Shown: in pieces, positions 2,417-8,727 of the stretch
Numbering within the stretch: position 1 is the stretch's first letter
Layout of the letters: each line of letters begins with the position of its first letter
Source: a virus
Lineage: Duplodnaviria > Heunggongvirae > Uroviricota > Caudoviricetes
Length of the DNA stretch: 20,165 nt
Virus record (IMG/VR): IMGVR_UViG_2648501150_000043
Span: 1 to 20,165 of that record
Strand: one strand, 5' to 3'
Position numbers and translations under genes: made by a program
The notes under the pieces: generated by a model
Told to the model about the DNA's origin: nothing
Seen by the model: only the letters and a program-made list of their open reading frames with translations
Databases searched by the model: none

Positions 2417-2712
2417 TTGTCTTTCTCCTGAGACTCAGCGGCCATTTTCAGATACTGTTCAGGACAGTGCGCCATGACGCGCTGAAACAATGCCAGTGCC
2501 AGGTTGCGCTGCCCTTCGTTGAATGCAGTTAAGTGCGAATCACCAGCGAAGCATGGTGAGAACACCTTTCCCCTCTCCAGCATCGACCAGATAACGCGGC
2601 GGCCTTGCTCGCTACCCATAACGAACTTGATGTCGTCGATATCACGCTGAGCCAGAAGTTGCTGTTTGGCGTCAAGCTCTGCTTTGCGTCCTTCGTCGTC
2701 GATATCCATCAT
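2413..2712 (-). CDS. Hypothetical small acidic head-module protein (99 aa)
   Basis: ORF whose ATG overlaps the portal stop codon (ATGA coupling at 2709-2712); no recognisable family. Confidence 0.55.
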   Translation of the reverse strand: MMDIDDEGRKAELDAKQQLLAQRDIDDIKFVMGSEQGRRVIWSMLERGKVFSPCFAGDSHLTAFNEGQRNLALALFQRVMAHCPEQYLKMAAESQEKDK

Positions 2713-4379
2713 TGCTGCGGTGCTCCTGCTGCATTAGCGATAGCAGTTAATGCGCTCGGGTCGCTGGTCTGCGTTTCGCTGAGAGTCTTGGCCCCCTGCG
2801 CTGCCGCCTGACCCATAGCCATTGCCTGTGCCGCCTGAGCCTGTTTAGCTCGCTCTTCACGAATACCCTGTACCTGCTCCTGCGGAACGATGACGGTTGG
2901 CGATACGCCTGACATTTCAGAGAACGCGTCGATAGCCTGATCCACATCAAGCTTGTCGAGCGCTTCAGGTTTGAACTGCGCCAGTTGCCCGATAAATCCA
3001 ACTGTCTGCGACAGGCTGGTGAGGCCGATAGATTTCTGAGCCTGAGCCATCACAGAGATGTACTCGATACGCAGCGGCATACCCTGAAGAACGTCAGGAG
3101 GTTCTGGCAACATGTTCTTGCGGGCCATGATTGAGAACACGCGATCGATAAGCGGGTTAAGCGCTTCGTCATTCAGGCGCTCAAGCACCGGGCCAAGCAT
3201 CAGCAGTTTCTCTTCCTTCATCTCGATCACCGCTTCCACCGGCATAGATCGGGTGTTGATGTTTTGCAGCATCATGAAGAGGTCAACGAAGTAGGCGCTG
3301 TTGATGGTCTGCCTAGTGTCCTGAATGTCAGCCAGCAGGTCGGCGGTATTCGGGTTTACCAGGTATGCAGGTTTGAAACCATCCTGACCGGTCAACACGT
3401 CGAGGTACGTCACATCGCCAGGCAACAGGGAAACCCGCTGATTCTTGAGCGATGTCGGGGCAACCATCGGCGGGTTAGTGGCTTTATCGATCAACTGAGC
3501 TTTGCGCTTCTGCTCAACCTGAAGGGCTTTAACCTGACCGAGTGCCAGCATTCCAGGACAGGATGAGGCGTAAACGTCTTCGCCATTCACTTCCCAGCGC
3601 GGCGCCAGAATAGGGAATTCATCAAATCCGGATTCACGCAGCAGCTTGTCAGCGTCACCGCCAGTTTCGAAATAGACAGAGCGGTAAGGCTTGTTCTTGC
3701 TGTCCATCTTACCGCTGTCGCGGTTGACGTTAGGCGTGATGCAGTGGTTAACCTCCACCCACGTTTCATACGTGCCATTTTCCCACATGCCTTTTACGGA
3801 TGTACTGACGTTATCCAGACCGAATTCCTGCACCATCTGGCGCACGGTCATGGAGAACTGGCGAATGCAGGTGTCTACGCTACCGCGCGGACTGTTAGCC
3901 AGGTAGTAACTGCCAATAGGGAAAGGCATTGTGCGGATCACGTCCTGGTCATCTTCCAGAACAGCCATAGCGCCGGTGCCGAAAGTACCCAGACTTGCGT
4001 ACATAACAGGCAGTGACTGATACAAATTCGATTTGTTGAACACTTCGTTCATGCGGCGCTGCACGACTTCCAGCCAGATTTTCACCGGGCCATAGTCCAT
4101 CATGTCAGGGTCAGGCGTTGCCAGTTTGAACCACGGTCGTGCCGGACTGGTGATGCCTGACATCATGCCGCTGGACAGAATGCGCTGAGCCATTGAGCCA
4201 GTGGGATCAACAATCTTGGTGTTACGGCGATCATCACGGTTTACATCAGATGTCAGAAAGCGGGAGCCACGCGGATTGATGAAGTCACTCAGATCACGCC
4301 AGTGCGATTCGAACGATGTGCGCTCATTCTTCAGCTGCGCAAGTTGCTTCAGCAGGCGCTCTTTTTCGGTTTCCGCCAT
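2709..4379 (-). CDS. Portal (head-to-tail connector) protein, 556 aa
   Basis: Long ORF of typical portal size downstream of the large terminase, upstream of scaffold and capsid; GGAG-type RBS; sequence recalls podovirus-type connector proteins (recall only). Confidence 0.85.
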   Translation of the reverse strand: MAETEKERLLKQLAQLKNERTSFESHWRDLSDFINPRGSRFLTSDVNRDDRRNTKIVDPTGSMAQRILSSGMMSGITSPARPWFKLATPDPDMMDYGPVKIWLEVVQRRMNEVFNKSNLYQSLPVMYASLGTFGTGAMAVLEDDQDVIRTMPFPIGSYYLANSPRGSVDTCIRQFSMTVRQMVQEFGLDNVSTSVKGMWENGTYETWVEVNHCITPNVNRDSGKMDSKNKPYRSVYFETGGDADKLLRESGFDEFPILAPRWEVNGEDVYASSCPGMLALGQVKALQVEQKRKAQLIDKATNPPMVAPTSLKNQRVSLLPGDVTYLDVLTGQDGFKPAYLVNPNTADLLADIQDTRQTINSAYFVDLFMMLQNINTRSMPVEAVIEMKEEKLLMLGPVLERLNDEALNPLIDRVFSIMARKNMLPEPPDVLQGMPLRIEYISVMAQAQKSIGLTSLSQTVGFIGQLAQFKPEALDKLDVDQAIDAFSEMSGVSPTVIVPQEQVQGIREERAKQAQAAQAMAMGQAAAQGAKTLSETQTSDPSALTAIANAAGAPQQ

Positions 4380-4393
4380 CTCTGCCTACTCCG

Positions 4394-4600
4394 TTACTGA
4401 CCAAGCAGCGTTTTACCGCTGGTGTTTGCGGTTGAGGTGTCACCCTGAGCACCAGTCAGCAGAGTGGAACTGCGTCCTGCTGCTGCACGGCGGCGGCGTT
4501 CTTCGTCGTCACGAGAACTGACAACTGCTGCATCCTGCTCCTGTGGCGCAGCCTGTACTTCTGGCGCTGCTGGCACTGATGGCTTGCTGCCGATACACAT
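4394..4600 (-). CDS. Hypothetical small protein (68 aa), Ala/Pro/Arg-rich low complexity
   Basis: ORF ending 14 nt before portal start; GGAG 10 nt upstream of ATG; low-complexity composition makes coding status uncertain. Confidence 0.35.
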   Translation of the reverse strand: MCIGSKPSVPAAPEVQAAPQEQDAAVVSSRDDEERRRRAAAGRSSTLLTGAQGDTSTANTSGKTLLGQ

Positions 4601-4706: not shown

Positions 4707-5308
4707 TGATGTTGATGTAACGCAGTTGATGTACGGCATATGGCACATGTGCCGCAGCGGTCCGGATGGGTTCCATTGATGCTACTTCCCCAGCCGGGTA
4801 GCCGGAATGTGCAAGCCAGTGTCAGGTAAGCACGGACAGACGATTCACCATCGTGGCGATACGGTGTGACACCTCGGAAGAGACGAGGATGCAACGATGA
4901 GAGCATTGGGGTGACCGGTTAATCCCATGACGCTAACCGATACAGGCGCAGTGCTCTCAATGTTGTGGTTAATGGCGGGGCTGACCGTCAAACGGTTGAG
5001 AAAAGATAAGCAGGCGAAACGTTCTAAGCGAGCATACGGACTGATCGAACGCGGATGGAACGGGCGGTTACGATATTGAAACACCGCGCCACTGAGCTGG
5101 AGTTCAGCACCAGCCACCACAAACGAATCACGTTAGGACCGTGGTAAACCGTAGTGCCAATGTAATTGCTGTGTGACTTTGTCGGTGCCAGATTCATCCC
5201 GAGTTGCCCCTCGCTGGTACCGACACTTTTTTTACAGCAGAACGCCATTGCGATGACGTTGCGCTGTAAACCCGTAACTGCCATGGAAGGCACCCTTACT
5301 TCCAGTTC
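4707..5308 (+). other. About 600-bp region without ORFs of 60 aa or more on the plus strand, rich in local inverted repeats; candidate long structured leader or ncRNA, ending in intrinsic terminator
   Basis: Six-frame track shows no plus-strand ORF here; the three minus-strand ORFs are in three different frames with implausible composition; region bounded by promoter-like TTGACA (4670) and a strong terminator (5309-5332). Confidence 0.25.
4927..5079 (+). CDS. Possible 50-aa small protein MTLTDTGAVLSMLWLMAGLTVKRLRKDKQAKRSKRAYGLIERGWNGRLRY (hydrophobic N-terminus, strongly basic C-terminus)
   Basis: Found by manual translation (below ORF-track size cut-off); weak RBS (GGGGTG about 13 nt upstream); speculative. 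Confidence 0.2.
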   Translation: MTLTDTGAVLSMLWLMAGLTVKRLRKDKQAKRSKRAYGLIERGWNGRLRY

Positions 5309-5332
5309 GCCCACTTCGGTGGGCATTTTTTT
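5309..5332 (+). terminator. Rho-independent terminator: GCCCAC-TTCG-GTGGGC hairpin followed by ATTTTTTT
   Basis: Perfect 6-bp GC-rich stem with 4-nt loop and 7-T run on plus strand; the reverse strand lacks a T-run, so it is unidirectional. Confidence 0.65.
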
Positions 5333-5343
5333 AAGGTGAGATT

Positions 5344-5775
5344 ATGAGCAAAGACCTGTTTGACATGAAGCGCCTTCCGGTTGACCGGGTTGCTGCGAGA
5401 GTTGTTGGTAAGGGCGTGGATTGGACACCAAACAAAGTTATCCAGACAGGAGACAGCGATCTGCCGTTGCCAGTGTTTTCTGTGTATAACATTAAAAACC
5501 CGCAACAACGGCGAGAAGTGAAAGCAATGATCGGAAGAAAGCGCGGGAGATTGACAATAATTGGCCTTGCTGTCACGCAAGGAGCAAAAAATAAAGGTGC
5601 TCGCTATGTTGCTCGTTGTGTTTGCGGGATTTATACGTATCGCCGAGCAAAAAATTTCAAGAATAATTCCGATGAGTTTGATGGCTGCGAACGATGCAGG
5701 GAGTTGCTGTTTTTGAAACGAGATGAGGTCCATCGCAGAACTGGAAAATGGGTAGAATGGAAAGATTTGATATAA
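5344..5775 (+). CDS. Hypothetical basic protein with C-terminal Cys4 zinc-ribbon (C-x-C ... C-x2-C), 143 aa
   Basis: AAGGTGAG RBS 4 nt before ATG, immediately after a terminator; own terminator downstream; opposite strand to the surrounding late operon; Cys pairs CVCG and CERC about 21 residues apart. Confidence 0.65.
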   Translation: MSKDLFDMKRLPVDRVAARVVGKGVDWTPNKVIQTGDSDLPLPVFSVYNIKNPQQRREVKAMIGRKRGRLTIIGLAVTQGAKNKGARYVARCVCGIYTYRRAKNFKNNSDEFDGCERCRELLFLKRDEVHRRTGKWVEWKDLI

Positions 5776-5778
5776 CGC

Positions 5779-5792
5779 TGTGACATGTCACA
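5779..5792. promoter_or_regulatory. 14-bp perfect palindrome TGTGACATGTCACA
   Basis: Exact palindrome 4 nt after the 143-aa gene stop; a 12-bp copy GTGACATGTCAC recurs at 8296-8307, and GGCACATGTGCC at 4742-4753 shares the ACATGT core. Confidence 0.35.
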
Positions 5793-5795
5793 TTC

Positions 5796-5821
5796 AGCCC
5801 GCCGATGCGCGGGCTTTTTTG
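5796..5821 (+). terminator. Rho-independent terminator: AGCCCGC-CGATGC-GCGGGCT hairpin followed by TTTTTT
   Basis: 7-bp GC stem plus 6-T run on plus strand only. Confidence 0.65.
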
Positions 5822-5862
5822 TATGGCATAATCACTCATTCGATTATCACAGCGAGTGGACC

Positions 5863-6144
5863 ATGAAAATTAAACAAAAAATTGTTAATACCTTTGTGAA
5901 CTCAACCCATGAGTGGAACATGGCCATGCACAATGCCATTGAAAGAAAGGTATTTGAAGGATTTGAAAGCACATTCCCTAATGGATTAAAAGACCCTGCT
6001 GAGACCGGTGAAAGAATAGAGTCAATGCGTGCATTCTATTATCAGCGCATGATGAATACCGCATCACTTTTGCTAACTGGTGCGTCACTAATCATTGCAT
6101 TAGTTGCCTTGGTTGTAGCTCTGATATCAATTCACTATGCATAG
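5863..6144 (+). CDS. Hypothetical small membrane-anchored protein (93 aa) with C-terminal transmembrane helix; the track ORF starts earlier at 5785
   Basis: Hydrophobic stretch SLLLTGASLIIALVALVVALISI at C-terminus; visibly AT-rich codon usage compared with neighbours; 3' end overlaps terL 3' end convergently by 10 bp. Confidence 0.5.
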   Translation: MKIKQKIVNTFVNSTHEWNMAMHNAIERKVFEGFESTFPNGLKDPAETGERIESMRAFYYQRMMNTASLLLTGASLIIALVALVVALISIHYA

Positions 6145-7610
6145 GGGTCGTATTCTGTCAACGCCTTGCCCTGCTGGCTTTGCTGTCCTGGTATATTCAT
6201 ACGTTTCGACACCGGGAAAGCAAACGTCAGCAGCAGCGCATCACCCTTGCCAGGAGAACGGCCTAACCGCTCTTTGATATCTTCCTTCGGCTCAATAACT
6301 ATCTTGCCGTCCACCCTGACTTTGTACTCAGCCGCCGACAGGTCGTCAGCCGTTTCCTGGTCATCCAGTGCGCCACCAATTTTCAGCCACGTTTTGCAGC
6401 TGTTGAACATCTCGCCGCGCTTGTTGAGCATCTGCGGATCGGTAGAGCCGCCGCCGAAAGGTATCAGTTGCCAGGAACGGCCCCAGCCATCACCGATTGA
6501 CTTCAGCCCGGTACCATACCCGAAGTCGATGAATACAGCGTCAGCCTGGTACTGGTCTTCAAAATCAGCGATACGCTTTGCCATAATCAGATCATCGGTT
6601 GTCTTATTGCCGGTCCATAGCACTTTGCTGTGAAGCCCCTGGCGCAGGTATATCACCGCGTCATCCACACCGGAATACGCCGGGTCAACACCGATAATCA
6701 CCGGAGCGTGCGCCACCTGCCCGGCTGTCACCACGCGCTTCATTGCGGAATCAGTCAGGCCTGTCGGGATAAACTGGAGTTCAGACGCATCAGGGAAGAT
6801 CCCGCGTACACGAACTTTCACGAAGTCGCTATCCTCGCCGTAGTCATCAACCCACTTCTGCAACTGCTGCTTGTTGGTGCCTTCCACGGTGCGGCTGTCT
6901 ATCTGCGCGCACTTCCAGCGGTGTTTGTATTTGCGGAAGCATTCACGGAAACGCCCGGTGTTACGCGTAGGGTTCCCGAACGCCACCCAGATGATTTCGG
7001 TGTCTTCGTCCGTCAGCGCACCCTCGGCAACTTCCCACACCAGATCGGCAATGTTGGACGCTTCATCGAATACAACGATGATGCGCTTGCGTTCGTTGTG
7101 CAGACCGGCGAACGCCTCGGTGTTGTGTTCAGACCATGGAATAGCATCAGCGCGCCAGCGTTTGTCGTGACCGGGATCGTTGCTGTACATCGCGGTGGCG
7201 GTGCAGGTGAACCACTCTTTCGTGATAGCCAGGTTCGACCATTTGATGATTTCAGGCCATGTTTTGGTGCGCAGCTGGTTGTCGGTGTTGGCGGTCACCA
7301 CCACCTTGCAGTCTTCACAGGTAGACATGCCCCAGTTGATGAGCATCGAGATGAACGCAGATTTACCGATACCGTGGCCGGATGCGCGGGCCAACATCAG
7401 CGGCTGGTGACGCGTTGCTGGATTCTGCAGGTGATCGCGTATCTCGCGGAATGCGTCTGCCTGCCATTTTCGCGGGCCGGTGGCATGCGCCAGTTCTGTC
7501 CCCTCTTCGCCCCACGGAAACGCATACAGCGAATAGCCCAGCGGGTCATATGTGAACGATGCAATATCCTCGACAAGCTGCTCTTCCGGCGACATGGCTG
7601 CGGCTGTCAT
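6135..7610 (-). CDS. terL: Terminase large subunit (491 aa)
   Basis: Walker-A-like GHGIGKS near N-terminus, nuclease-like acidic C-terminal half, size, ATGA overlap with upstream small terminase gene. Confidence 0.9.
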   Translation of the reverse strand: MTAAAMSPEEQLVEDIASFTYDPLGYSLYAFPWGEEGTELAHATGPRKWQADAFREIRDHLQNPATRHQPLMLARASGHGIGKSAFISMLINWGMSTCEDCKVVVTANTDNQLRTKTWPEIIKWSNLAITKEWFTCTATAMYSNDPGHDKRWRADAIPWSEHNTEAFAGLHNERKRIIVVFDEASNIADLVWEVAEGALTDEDTEIIWVAFGNPTRNTGRFRECFRKYKHRWKCAQIDSRTVEGTNKQQLQKWVDDYGEDSDFVKVRVRGIFPDASELQFIPTGLTDSAMKRVVTAGQVAHAPVIIGVDPAYSGVDDAVIYLRQGLHSKVLWTGNKTTDDLIMAKRIADFEDQYQADAVFIDFGYGTGLKSIGDGWGRSWQLIPFGGGSTDPQMLNKRGEMFNSCKTWLKIGGALDDQETADDLSAAEYKVRVDGKIVIEPKEDIKERLGRSPGKGDALLLTFAFPVSKRMNIPGQQSQQGKALTEYDPYA

Positions 7611-8200
7611 TCTTCACCACCATCCAGCTCTTTCACGCGACGGCGGGCCTTCGCCATGCGGTCGGCAATCGTTACTGTGCCGGAAACCTCCATGCGCTCT
7701 TTGAACGCATTGACGTCGACGTGCTTACCGATAAGCTCGAGGTTCTTCACCTTGTCAGGCCATTTGATTTTTTTGAGGATTGTTTCTATCGAATCCTCGT
7801 TCATATTCATGATGGTCGATGACAAATCGAAACCGCTCAGTGTAGTACGCCATATCTTTGGCCACTCGCGGATAGGCTTCAGTGTGCCGTCATCGTTCAG
7901 GATATCGATCACGTCCATCTGGTCAATTTCCACCAGGCGGAGCAGTACGTAGTCCGCACTGACGCGCAAACGCTTGTTACGCTCTTCCATCAGTTCGGCG
8001 ATCCGTTTCTGGATACGCTCATCACGCATCATGACACTGGCCTTGACTGCCGCCGTATTTGGCGAAAATCCTGCGTTAATCGCTGCCTGAGTCTGATTCT
8101 CAGGGCATTTGGTATATTCCTGCGCGTAAGCCTCCTGCATCGCTGTAATTGGCTTATACTGCGTTGATTTGCGTTTTGGTGCTTTTGGTTCTGCGGGCAT
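7607..8200 (-). CDS. terS: Terminase small subunit, P27/Terminase_2-like (about 197 aa from ATG 8200; the track ORF extends to 8248)
   Basis: Motif QEAYAQEY...TQAAINAGFSPNTAAVKAS typical of small terminase DNA-binding domain; GGTGG RBS 5 nt upstream of ATG at 8200; the longer 8248 start would add a hydrophobic junk peptide and cover the operator. Confidence 0.85.
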   Translation of the reverse strand: MPAEPKAPKRKSTQYKPITAMQEAYAQEYTKCPENQTQAAINAGFSPNTAAVKASVMMRDERIQKRIAELMEERNKRLRVSADYVLLRLVEIDQMDVIDILNDDGTLKPIREWPKIWRTTLSGFDLSSTIMNMNEDSIETILKKIKWPDKVKNLELIGKHVDVNAFKERMEVSGTVTIADRMAKARRRVKELDGGEE

Positions 8201-8219
8201 TGTTACCACCGAAGTAATA

Positions 8220-8236
8220 ATTACCGTTTTGGTAAT
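8220..8236. promoter_or_regulatory. Perfect 17-bp palindrome ATTACC-GTTTT-GGTAAT about 20 bp upstream of the terS start codon, flanked by further TTACC/GTAAT half-sites (8203-8243)
   Basis: Exact inverted repeat; sits between a minus-strand terminator and terS RBS. Confidence 0.5.
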
Positions 8237-8240
8237 AGTA

Positions 8241-8272
8241 ACACGCAAAACAAAGCCGCCATAGTCGGCGGC
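8241..8272 (-). terminator. Hairpin GCCGCC-ATAGTC-GGCGGC with T-rich tract (TTTGTTTTG) on the minus strand; intrinsic terminator or possibly part of a packaging (cos-like) site
   Basis: 6-bp GC stem and T-run read on minus strand; location between upstream early genes and terS. Confidence 0.4.
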
Positions 8273-8303
8273 CTTTGCAATTTATTGTCTCTATCGTGAC
8301 ATG

Positions 8304-8642
8304 TCACACCGCTAGTTTAGTATCATGCCAGCCACGCGTCACCCAGCATGCCGAATCACCATCACACGGACACGACTCAACTGGCAGCGCATCGCCACAT
8401 TTCCCGCAACGGTTAGAGCTGATTGACTTGATGCGCCCACGAACCCGCGCATCATCCTGGCGTATAAGCAACGCGATGTACTCGTTCATGTCATACGGCG
8501 CCCGACCAGGGCGACGGGCGGCGCAGTTTCTCGCCAGCATCTCCAGTTCCTGCTCGTCTAGTTGCAATTCCAGCTTGCGGTTACCAGATTCAGCCTGGCG
8601 GGCACGCTGCGCTGCTTTGCGCTCTGCTGCGGATTTAGCCAT
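8304..8642 (-). CDS. Hypothetical protein with basic N-terminus and C-terminal Cys-rich zinc-ribbon (CGKCG ... CPCDGDSAC), about 112 aa from ATG 8642
   Basis: ORF with internal ATG at 8642 preferred over 8690; last gene before terminase; stop codon overlaps GTGACATGTCAC palindrome. Confidence 0.5.
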   Translation of the reverse strand: MAKSAAERKAAQRARQAESGNRKLELQLDEQELEMLARNCAARRPGRAPYDMNEYIALLIRQDDARVRGRIKSISSNRCGKCGDALPVESCPCDGDSACWVTRGWHDTKLAV

Positions 8643-8727
8643 CACCAAATCCCCATTCCAGAGGCAGCAATTAACTGGCAGATAGCGCACATAGCCAGCG
8701 TAATAACAACCACTTTAACTGGCGGCA

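Follow-up and report, generated by a model that had tools for sequence, protein, structure and literature searches.

A low-GC gene convergent with terL in an epsilon15-like prophage: a probable moron for a predicted tail-anchored inner-membrane protein with a tentative role in protection of the lysogen

The DNA analyzed in this work, called the window hereafter, is a stretch of 20,165 nucleotides within an epsilon15-like (Uetakevirus) prophage. Among deposited phages, Salmonella virus PAT1 is the closest, with 91.6% identity across 73% of the window. The features of interest are collected in Table 1. An island of approximately 1.5 kb separates the 68-aa gene from terL, the gene for the large terminase subunit, and the last gene of this island is an open reading frame (ORF) that encodes a protein of 93 aa. 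The product is exactly the protein deposited as WP_052930699.1 under the name "hypothetical protein", and a near-identical variant of it is present on 254 Salmonella contigs. A longer reading of 119 aa, starting at an ATG at position 5785, was considered and rejected; it would cross the terminator hairpin and is not conserved, and the homologs keep the MKIKQK start. An initial annotation of the locus had described the ORF as richer in AT than its flanking genes and as ending in a hydrophobic helix. Both descriptions were correct: the GC content of the ORF is 0.387 (GC3 0.372) versus 0.564 for terL and 0.520 for the window, and the hydrophobic segment spans residues ~67-91, with a 19-residue Kyte-Doolittle mean of up to 2.85. 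Neither Rfam (at the gathering threshold and at E ≤ 1) nor ARAGORN revealed RNA genes in or around the region.

Table 1. Coordinates of the features discussed in the text, numbered from the first nucleotide of the window
Feature	Position	Strand	Basis or remark
Portal gene	2709-4379	-	Head-tail_con
68-aa gene	4394-4600	-	
100-aa ORF	5024-5326	-	Weak match to phrog_4647
Terminator-like hairpin, GTTCGCCCACTTCGGTGGGC then T-run	5305-5324	+	Shortly before the start of the 143-aa gene; within the 5' end of the 100-aa ORF
143-aa cargo gene (phrog_18493)	5344-5775	+	CxC...CxxC motif
Intrinsic terminator, AGCCCGCCGATGCGCGGGCT then T6	5796-5815	+	Strong; ends the upstream 143-aa cargo gene
Segment of ~315 bp missing from the closest relatives	5820-6134		Holds the promoter and nearly the whole 93-aa ORF
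Predicted extended -10 promoter, TGgCATAAT	5824-5832	+	Read from sequence; no recognizable -35
93-aa ORF including the stop codon	5863-6144	+	ATG 5863, TAG 6142-6144
Residues 1-66, predicted cytoplasmic helical hairpin	5863-6060	+	AF2 model, conservation
Residues 67-91, predicted transmembrane helix	6061-6135	+	Hydropathy, AF2 model, column statistics
10-nt overlap of the two stop regions, palindrome CTATGCATAG	6135-6144		
terL, large terminase, 491 aa	6135-7610	-	phrog_2 and phrog_5902; terminase annotation in relatives; convergent with the 93-aa ORF
terS, small terminase	7607-8248	-	Terminase_2

The family to which the 93-aa protein belongs was delimited by sequence searches. A search of 5.8 billion proteins returned 18 clusters at 45-98% identity, nearly all of 93 aa, from Salmonella, Enterobacter, E. 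coli and Kluyvera. When 1.84 billion representatives were searched exhaustively with a profile, 61 clusters (50% identity) were obtained, of which 48 had E ≤ 1e-10; their lengths were almost all between 87 and 105 aa. Members from Serratia, Klebsiella, Rahnella, Burkholderia, Caballeronia and Paraburkholderia were added by a second indexed search, in which all source names were "hypothetical protein" and no Pfam domain was recorded; the family ranges over the Enterobacterales and the Burkholderiaceae. Comparison of the window with an Enterobacter copy (L003) gave a pN of 0.08 and a pS of 0.76, the latter saturated, which indicates strong purifying selection on the protein. Over all comparisons of the ORF, pN (0.08-0.23) remained far under pS (0.72-1.0). 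A lack of conservation had been named initially as an observation that would speak against the gene, and the opposite was found. By these sequence comparisons, the ORF is a genuine gene, conserved beyond chance. It is a member of an uncharacterized family and an ordinary kind of element.

The segment that contains the gene is missing from the closest relatives of the prophage. The megablast matches to PAT1 and to the E. coli E2348/69 prophage end at window position 5819 and restart in terL, and the alignment with both shows a clean gap at this point. PAT1 and E2348/69 carry the same 143-aa gene, palindrome and terminator upstream, and the T-run of their terminator continues straight into the terL stop codon (GGGCTTTTTCATGCATAGGGATCG). 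The window has, then, approximately 315 bp of extra DNA between genes that are adjacent in related phages. The 93-aa ORF is carried by 4 of the 5426 complete E. coli genomes, 109 of which have a match to this region, mostly owing to the end of terL. The 50,697 deposited phage records contain no copy, even when searched by tblastn at E ≤ 1, and the ORF is missing from the closest functional phages, PAT1, epsilon15 and SPN1S. When 21 epsilon15-like sequences (20 fetched loci and the window) were compared, the region between terL and the portal gene measured 715-1763 bp and was mosaic in content; the 93-aa ORF was present with or without the 143-aa gene and vice versa, which is independent assortment. 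The terL-portal island behaves as a hotspot for cargo genes. Horizontal acquisition, at first suggested by base composition, is now upheld by the presence or absence of the segment relative to PAT1 and E2348/69, by the low GC content and by the independent assortment with the neighboring cargo. An origin by microhomology or target duplication from the similar sequences ATGGCATA (5823-5830) and ATGCATA (6137-6143) was considered as well and found to be unsupported; a simple deletion between them destroys the terL stop codon.

Some other differences were observed among these loci. The large terminase of PAT1 (L002 3021-5471) is annotated as a protein of 816 aa, compared with 491 aa in the window and ~493 aa in E2348/69, and the extra length could reflect an insertion, such as an intein or fused gene, or else a mis-annotation. 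In E2348/69 (L001 2228-2340), RefSeq lists a pseudogenic tRNA-Gly at a place that corresponds to about positions 5025-5137 of the window, where the 100-aa ORF is located; neither ARAGORN nor Rfam finds a tRNA in the window. The 143-aa cargo gene weakly resembles an HNH-endonuclease PHROG (E 9e-6) and matches nothing in Pfam, NCBIfam or PADLOC.

The arrangement of transcription signals suggests that the 93-aa gene is expressed independently. The terminator that follows the 143-aa gene is predicted to insulate it from upstream transcription. The putative extended -10 element begins eight bases past this terminator and 30 nt upstream of the ATG, and transcription would start near position 5839. 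In close relatives the sequence TGGCATAAT is kept, whereas the 5'UTR diverges. The same order of elements, a terminator, a TGn followed by a -10-like hexamer, a spacer of 29-32 nt and the ATG, was found in four diverged lineages whose coding sequences are only 45-66% identical; the element reads TGgTATTAT in L014, TGtGATAAT in L009 and TGaTATCAT in L018. A generic promoter scan did not list the element in the window because it has no -35. The recurrence of the extended -10 is good evidence, at the level of sequence, for an autonomous predicted sigma-70 promoter. The gene would then have a host-type promoter of its own and be transcribed against the phage late genes, and these two properties imply that it is probably expressed in the lysogen.

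Transcription on both strands would extend beyond the individual genes. No terminator-like site was found on the plus strand between 6144 and 7100 and, since no intrinsic terminator follows the ORF, its transcript must enter terL in antisense. This agrees with the initial proposal that the island transcript is antisense to the 3' end of terL. The plus strand across terL is C-rich and G-poor (C/G 1.34), and Rho-dependent termination within the antisense of terL is possible. Conversely, read on the minus strand, the 5796-5815 terminator lacks a T-run, and the phage late transcript must cross the 93-aa ORF in antisense to reach the portal gene. One distant relative, L009, has its own terminator downstream of the family member.

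Morons classically carry their own terminator. The Juhala/Hendrix definition of these elements, which includes expression from the repressed prophage, is summarized in PMC3594210. The 93-aa element fits this definition in its extra DNA and deviant GC content and, if the promoter predicted from the sequence is active, would fit it in having its own promoter; it has no terminator of its own. Well-known examples are bor and lom of lambda, accessory genes located in or beside late operons and transcribed from their own promoters in the lysogen; bor also runs against late transcription. The 93-aa gene resembles them (their roles are described in PMC3594210) in its position beside the late operon and its predicted promoter, and resembles bor in its orientation too. 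Unlike bor and lom, which encode outer-membrane proteins or lipoproteins with signal peptides, it encodes a protein without a signal peptide and with a predicted inner-membrane tail anchor.

An exact 12-bp palindrome, GTGACATGTCAC, occurs twice in the window, at 5780-5791 and at 8296-8307, as part of an extended inverted repeat (5773-5791 / 8296-8314). The chance recurrence of an exact 12-mer in 20 kb was estimated at ~0.002. The first copy is located 4 nt past the stop codon of the 143-aa gene, just before the terminator at 5796-5815; the second overlaps the stop codon of a regulator-like gene on the minus strand (phrog_536, 8304-8690) that precedes terS, and is followed by a terminator at 8275-8252 on the same strand. 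Each module of palindrome and terminator is directed into the block formed by terS and terL. Epsilon15-like relatives retain both copies, and the one in the island persists regardless of the cargo gene in front of it. The palindrome could be the operator of a late regulator, a site of recombination at module boundaries, or a packaging-related element. A CRP site was rejected for its wrong spacing and a LexA site because the CTGT half is not conserved. LexA-box-like sequences, ACTGTATATACATACAGTA and TACTGTATATAATCACAGTA, were found just upstream of terS in L006 (~8680-8700) and L014 (~3260-3280), respectively, between the terS-side palindrome and terS; the window has the terminator 8275-8252 at this position.

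The junction of the ORF with terL was described initially as a shared palindrome that includes both stop codons, with both proteins ending in Tyr-Ala, and this was confirmed. The plus-strand ORF and terL, on the minus strand with its stop codon at 6135-6137, both end with TAT GCA TAG. The initial annotation had gone further and proposed that the overlap could couple island expression to that of the packaging gene. In such a case the palindrome or the overlap would itself be a selected device, acting as a protein-binding site or as a bidirectional RNA structure. Convergent transcription over these ten positions is unavoidable if both promoters fire, and the 10-nt overlap is retained in many Salmonella, Enterobacter and Kluyvera copies. 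However, perfect 10-bp palindromes are no more common than chance in the window (26 observed versus 19.2 ± 4.5 in shuffled sequences), and the symmetry follows from the coding constraint: when two convergent ORFs that both end in Tyr-Ala-stop overlap by 10 nt, self-complementarity is imposed on 8 of the 10 positions, following the pattern YTA-Y-GC-R-TAR derived from the codon register. Furthermore, the same terL end exists in phages without the ORF, where terL already ends in ...DPYA-stop; their plus strand contains ATGCATAGGG and reads ...CATGCATAGGG, so that a TAG is pre-made in the frame of the ORF.

The variation among relatives points in the same direction. Besides the perfect palindromes CTATGCATAG and TTATGCATAA, the overlap has the imperfect natural variants CTATGCATAA in L024 and TTATGCGTAA in L006, and the variants differ at synonymous positions or by the choice of stop codon. 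The overlap is only 4 nt in the Klebsiella lineage, in which terL ends in DPWA and the ORF in KYS or KFS, and also in L014; in L009 the two genes are separated by a gap of 63 bp that includes the terminator; and terL is not a neighbor of the family members located in P2-like prophages or chromosomal islands. In the wider family the protein ends 0-4 residues past the transmembrane helix and no C-terminal residues are conserved. The proposed functional coupling did not survive these comparisons, and a selected role for the palindrome appears to be largely refuted and very improbable. Convergent transcription would be a physical fact of the arrangement, and nothing indicates selection on the overlap or on its symmetry. 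The ORF runs into the end of terL, with its last codons and stop borrowed from the antisense of ...Pro-Tyr-Ala-stop, and the palindrome and the 10-nt overlap are very probably an accident of the joining of the cassette to the terL end. A promoter-like site, TTGACA-16 nt-CATAGT, was observed at 6161-6134 on the minus strand. The match extends to 10 of 12 positions, and the stop-codon palindrome forms the -10; an RNA initiated here would be antisense to the 93-aa ORF and run towards the portal gene. The -35 falls within the coding part of terL and is not shared by relatives.

The AlphaFold2 (AF2) model, built with a 46-sequence alignment (mean pLDDT 91), consists of a helix at residues 3-37, a loop at 38-44 and one long helix at 45-92, that is, a hairpin whose second helix continues into the transmembrane segment. 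Residues 67-91 are the sole hydrophobic stretch of the 93. Arg51, Arg56 and Arg62 precede the transmembrane helix, only the uncharged HYA end (two residues past the helix) follows it, and there is no signal peptide; together these features predict an N-in, tail-anchored topology. The single C-terminal helix thus agrees with the membrane anchoring suggested initially, and the cytoplasmic N-terminal domain is that expected of a tail-anchored protein, the topology being predicted. Among 43 diverse members a conserved cluster lies next to the membrane, formed by W18, N19, H23 and E27 of helix 1 and by M55, R56, F58, Y59 (invariant), Y60, R62 and M63 of helix 2 (M55-R56-x-F58-Y59-Y60-x-R62). In the transmembrane helix, every one of the 43 aligned sequences has a small residue (A/S/G/T) at positions 72, 75, 79, 82 and 86, and most have one at position 89, a spacing of 3-4-3-4-3 that places them on one face. 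This stripe suggests tight helix-helix packing, in a homo-oligomer or with a binding partner, and the helix is probably more than a passive anchor. The protein of the window would be a tail-anchored inner-membrane protein with a conserved two-helix hairpin at the cytoplasmic face. ElaB, YqjD and YgaM (DUF883) are similar in size (~100 aa) and build: their N-terminal portion is helical and cytoplasmic, one transmembrane helix lies at the extreme C-terminus, and scarcely any tail reaches the periplasm. The likeness is one of architecture only; neither DUF883 nor any other Pfam family was matched at E ≤ 1 by the 46 members.

Searches for function gave little. Barring two weak matches, to Hol_Tox and to phrog_8560 (a PHROG without known function), no family in Pfam, NCBIfam, PADLOC or PHROGs was matched by the ORF, the 46 members or the island neighbors. 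In particular, neither the ORF nor its neighbors in the island matched any defense family of PADLOC-DB v2 at E ≤ 0.01. A profile search of PDB sequences gave hydrophobic-helix noise (best E 0.08), and Foldseek found no match at E ≤ 0.001 in BFVD or PDB. A search for a common upstream partner gene across contexts found none with mutual similarity. In L012 (5196-6282, a non-phage chromosomal island) and L020 (6535-7273, a Burkholderia element), the family member starts exactly 19 nt after the upstream gene; these genes, of 261 and 148 aa, are membrane-protein-like by eye and unrelated to each other, and in those contexts each may form a two-gene operon with the family member. The only functional clue to the 93-aa protein is its genomic context.

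The match to Hol_Tox (PF16935) raises the possibility that the protein is a membrane-damaging toxin curbed by antisense transcription from the terL side, as in a type-I-like addiction or abortive module. The match covers residues 67-89 and recurs below threshold in 11 of the 46 members. The convergent arrangement without a terminator would suit such a module, the promoter-like site at 6161-6134 would make the antisense RNA, and the Ala/Ser stripe could line an oligomeric pore. Nonetheless, the score of 18.1 bits is below the cut-off of 23.3 and reflects the hydrophobic helix only. Type I toxins are usually shorter than 60 aa and have no conserved soluble domain of 65 residues, and type I holin-like toxins of the Hol_Tox kind, of ~35 aa, pass the gathering threshold and have an antisense RNA partner; the protein described here has 93 aa and a conserved soluble domain. 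Moreover, no conserved antisense promoter against the ORF was found in the relatives compared, in which the -35 of the promoter-like site is not conserved, and there are members in P2-like and chromosomal contexts without a convergent partner. A toxin of this kind is improbable.

The protein could also be a late-expressed accessory of the lytic cycle, silent in the lysogen, that acts in lysis timing, as a holin-like protein or antiholin, or as a membrane anchor for packaging or assembly. The gene adjoins the packaging genes; the palindrome ~50 bp upstream of its promoter (5780-5791) is identical to the one upstream of terS (8296-8307), which could mean co-regulation; and a distant homolog (L044) is beside ORFs that were read, without a family search, as lysis- and tail-fiber-like. 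A holin PHROG is weakly matched (E 0.0096) by one of the 46 members. On the other hand, the gene is oriented against late transcription, is missing from PAT1, epsilon15, SPN1S and all the deposited phage records, and the 12-bp palindrome is present as well in phages without it. Holins are expected in a lysis cassette on the endolysin side and with a charged C-terminal tail; here the neighbors are terL and island cargo, with no endolysin gene, and the C-terminus, ...SIHYA, has no charged tail. We consider a lytic function hardly likely.

The contexts in which the family recurs bear more directly on function. Homologs at 44-47% identity are located between gpA and the portal gene of Serratia-type P2-like prophages, directly after hicAB. 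In P2 this slot is the old/tin anti-phage hotspot (PMC9122126; bioRxiv 10.1101/2024.10.15.618418). Further members are found in chromosomal islands, close to MqsA-like or HigA-like antitoxin genes, and the L012 member lies outside prophages. The element in the window thus resembles the old/tin cargo in that its homologs occupy exactly that slot and that the terL-portal island is equally mosaic and swappable; it differs in being part of a podovirus-type prophage and in belonging to a family that is not among the PADLOC models. Location in a hotspot is a circumstantial argument. In a recent survey, protection was observed for most of the unknown P4 hotspot loci that had been picked at random, and only 15-32% of the unknown P2 hotspot proteins were predicted by machine learning to be antiviral (PMC13586616). 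By analogy with such cargo, we propose that the 93-aa protein may protect the lysogen from other phages, acting at the inner membrane either by blocking genome entry or through an abortive membrane effect. Of the roles considered we place this one first, but tentatively, as a possibility of some weight that falls short of likely.

Superinfection exclusion by gp15 of HK97 was reportedly described by Cumby et al. in 2012. This moron-encoded small inner-membrane protein excludes superinfecting phages by blocking genome entry (PMC3594210). Both gp15 and the 93-aa protein are small inner-membrane proteins, known in one case and predicted in the other, encoded by a cassette within a late structural or packaging operon of a temperate enterobacterial phage; both genes have a GC content unlike that of their neighbors, are missing from related phages and have homologs outside prophages. 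Unlike gp15, the 93-aa protein has no YebO-type or other Pfam match (46 members, E ≤ 1), combines a C-terminal anchor with a 65-residue conserved cytoplasmic hairpin, and its gene is without its own terminator and points against the late operon. In addition, hardly any of it would reach the periplasm, in contrast to several known exclusion proteins. HK97 gp15 would be the closest working analog, with no homology.

Many small enterobacterial membrane proteins modulate host membrane proteins. Like these, the 93-aa protein could be a lysogenic-conversion or host-fitness factor with no part in defense, modulating for instance a sensor kinase, a transporter or a stress response. The moron anatomy fits this explanation equally well, the presence of the family outside prophages (L012) and across the Enterobacterales and Burkholderiaceae is compatible with it, and the conserved cytoplasmic hairpin and the packing face of the transmembrane helix would suit the binding of a host partner. 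Morons have diverse roles (PMC3594210). However, the repeated placement of the family in hypervariable hotspots, including P2 old/tin, and beside toxin-antitoxin genes favors a role in conflict, and the conserved neighborhood points to no host partner. A host-directed function seems rather unlikely.

Taken together, it is very probable that the 93-aa gene is a genuine, horizontally mobile moron gene for a tail-anchored inner-membrane protein, and that the palindrome at its end is incidental. The segment would be an independently transcribed, horizontally acquired cargo in the terL-portal variable island of an epsilon15-like prophage. Within the protective role proposed above, a more specific suggestion, which we regard as doubtful, is that the family may be a new single-gene anti-phage module, in which a tail-anchored protein, oligomerized in the inner membrane by an Ala/Ser zipper, would act through its conserved juxtamembrane hairpin (W18, N19, H23 / F58, Y59, R62), either stopping the entry of the genome or collapsing the membrane on infection, and which would move between the hotspots of unrelated temperate phages. 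A more general lesson of the locus is that palindromes in tail-to-tail overlaps can be forced by coding, and they should not be called regulatory without comparative support. If the role of the protein is another one, the gene would be one more uncharacterized lysogenic-conversion gene. If it is protective, a very small single-gene membrane system would be added to the anti-phage repertoire, and the epsilon15-like terL-portal island would be a cargo hotspot comparable to P2 old/tin and useful for the mining of such systems.
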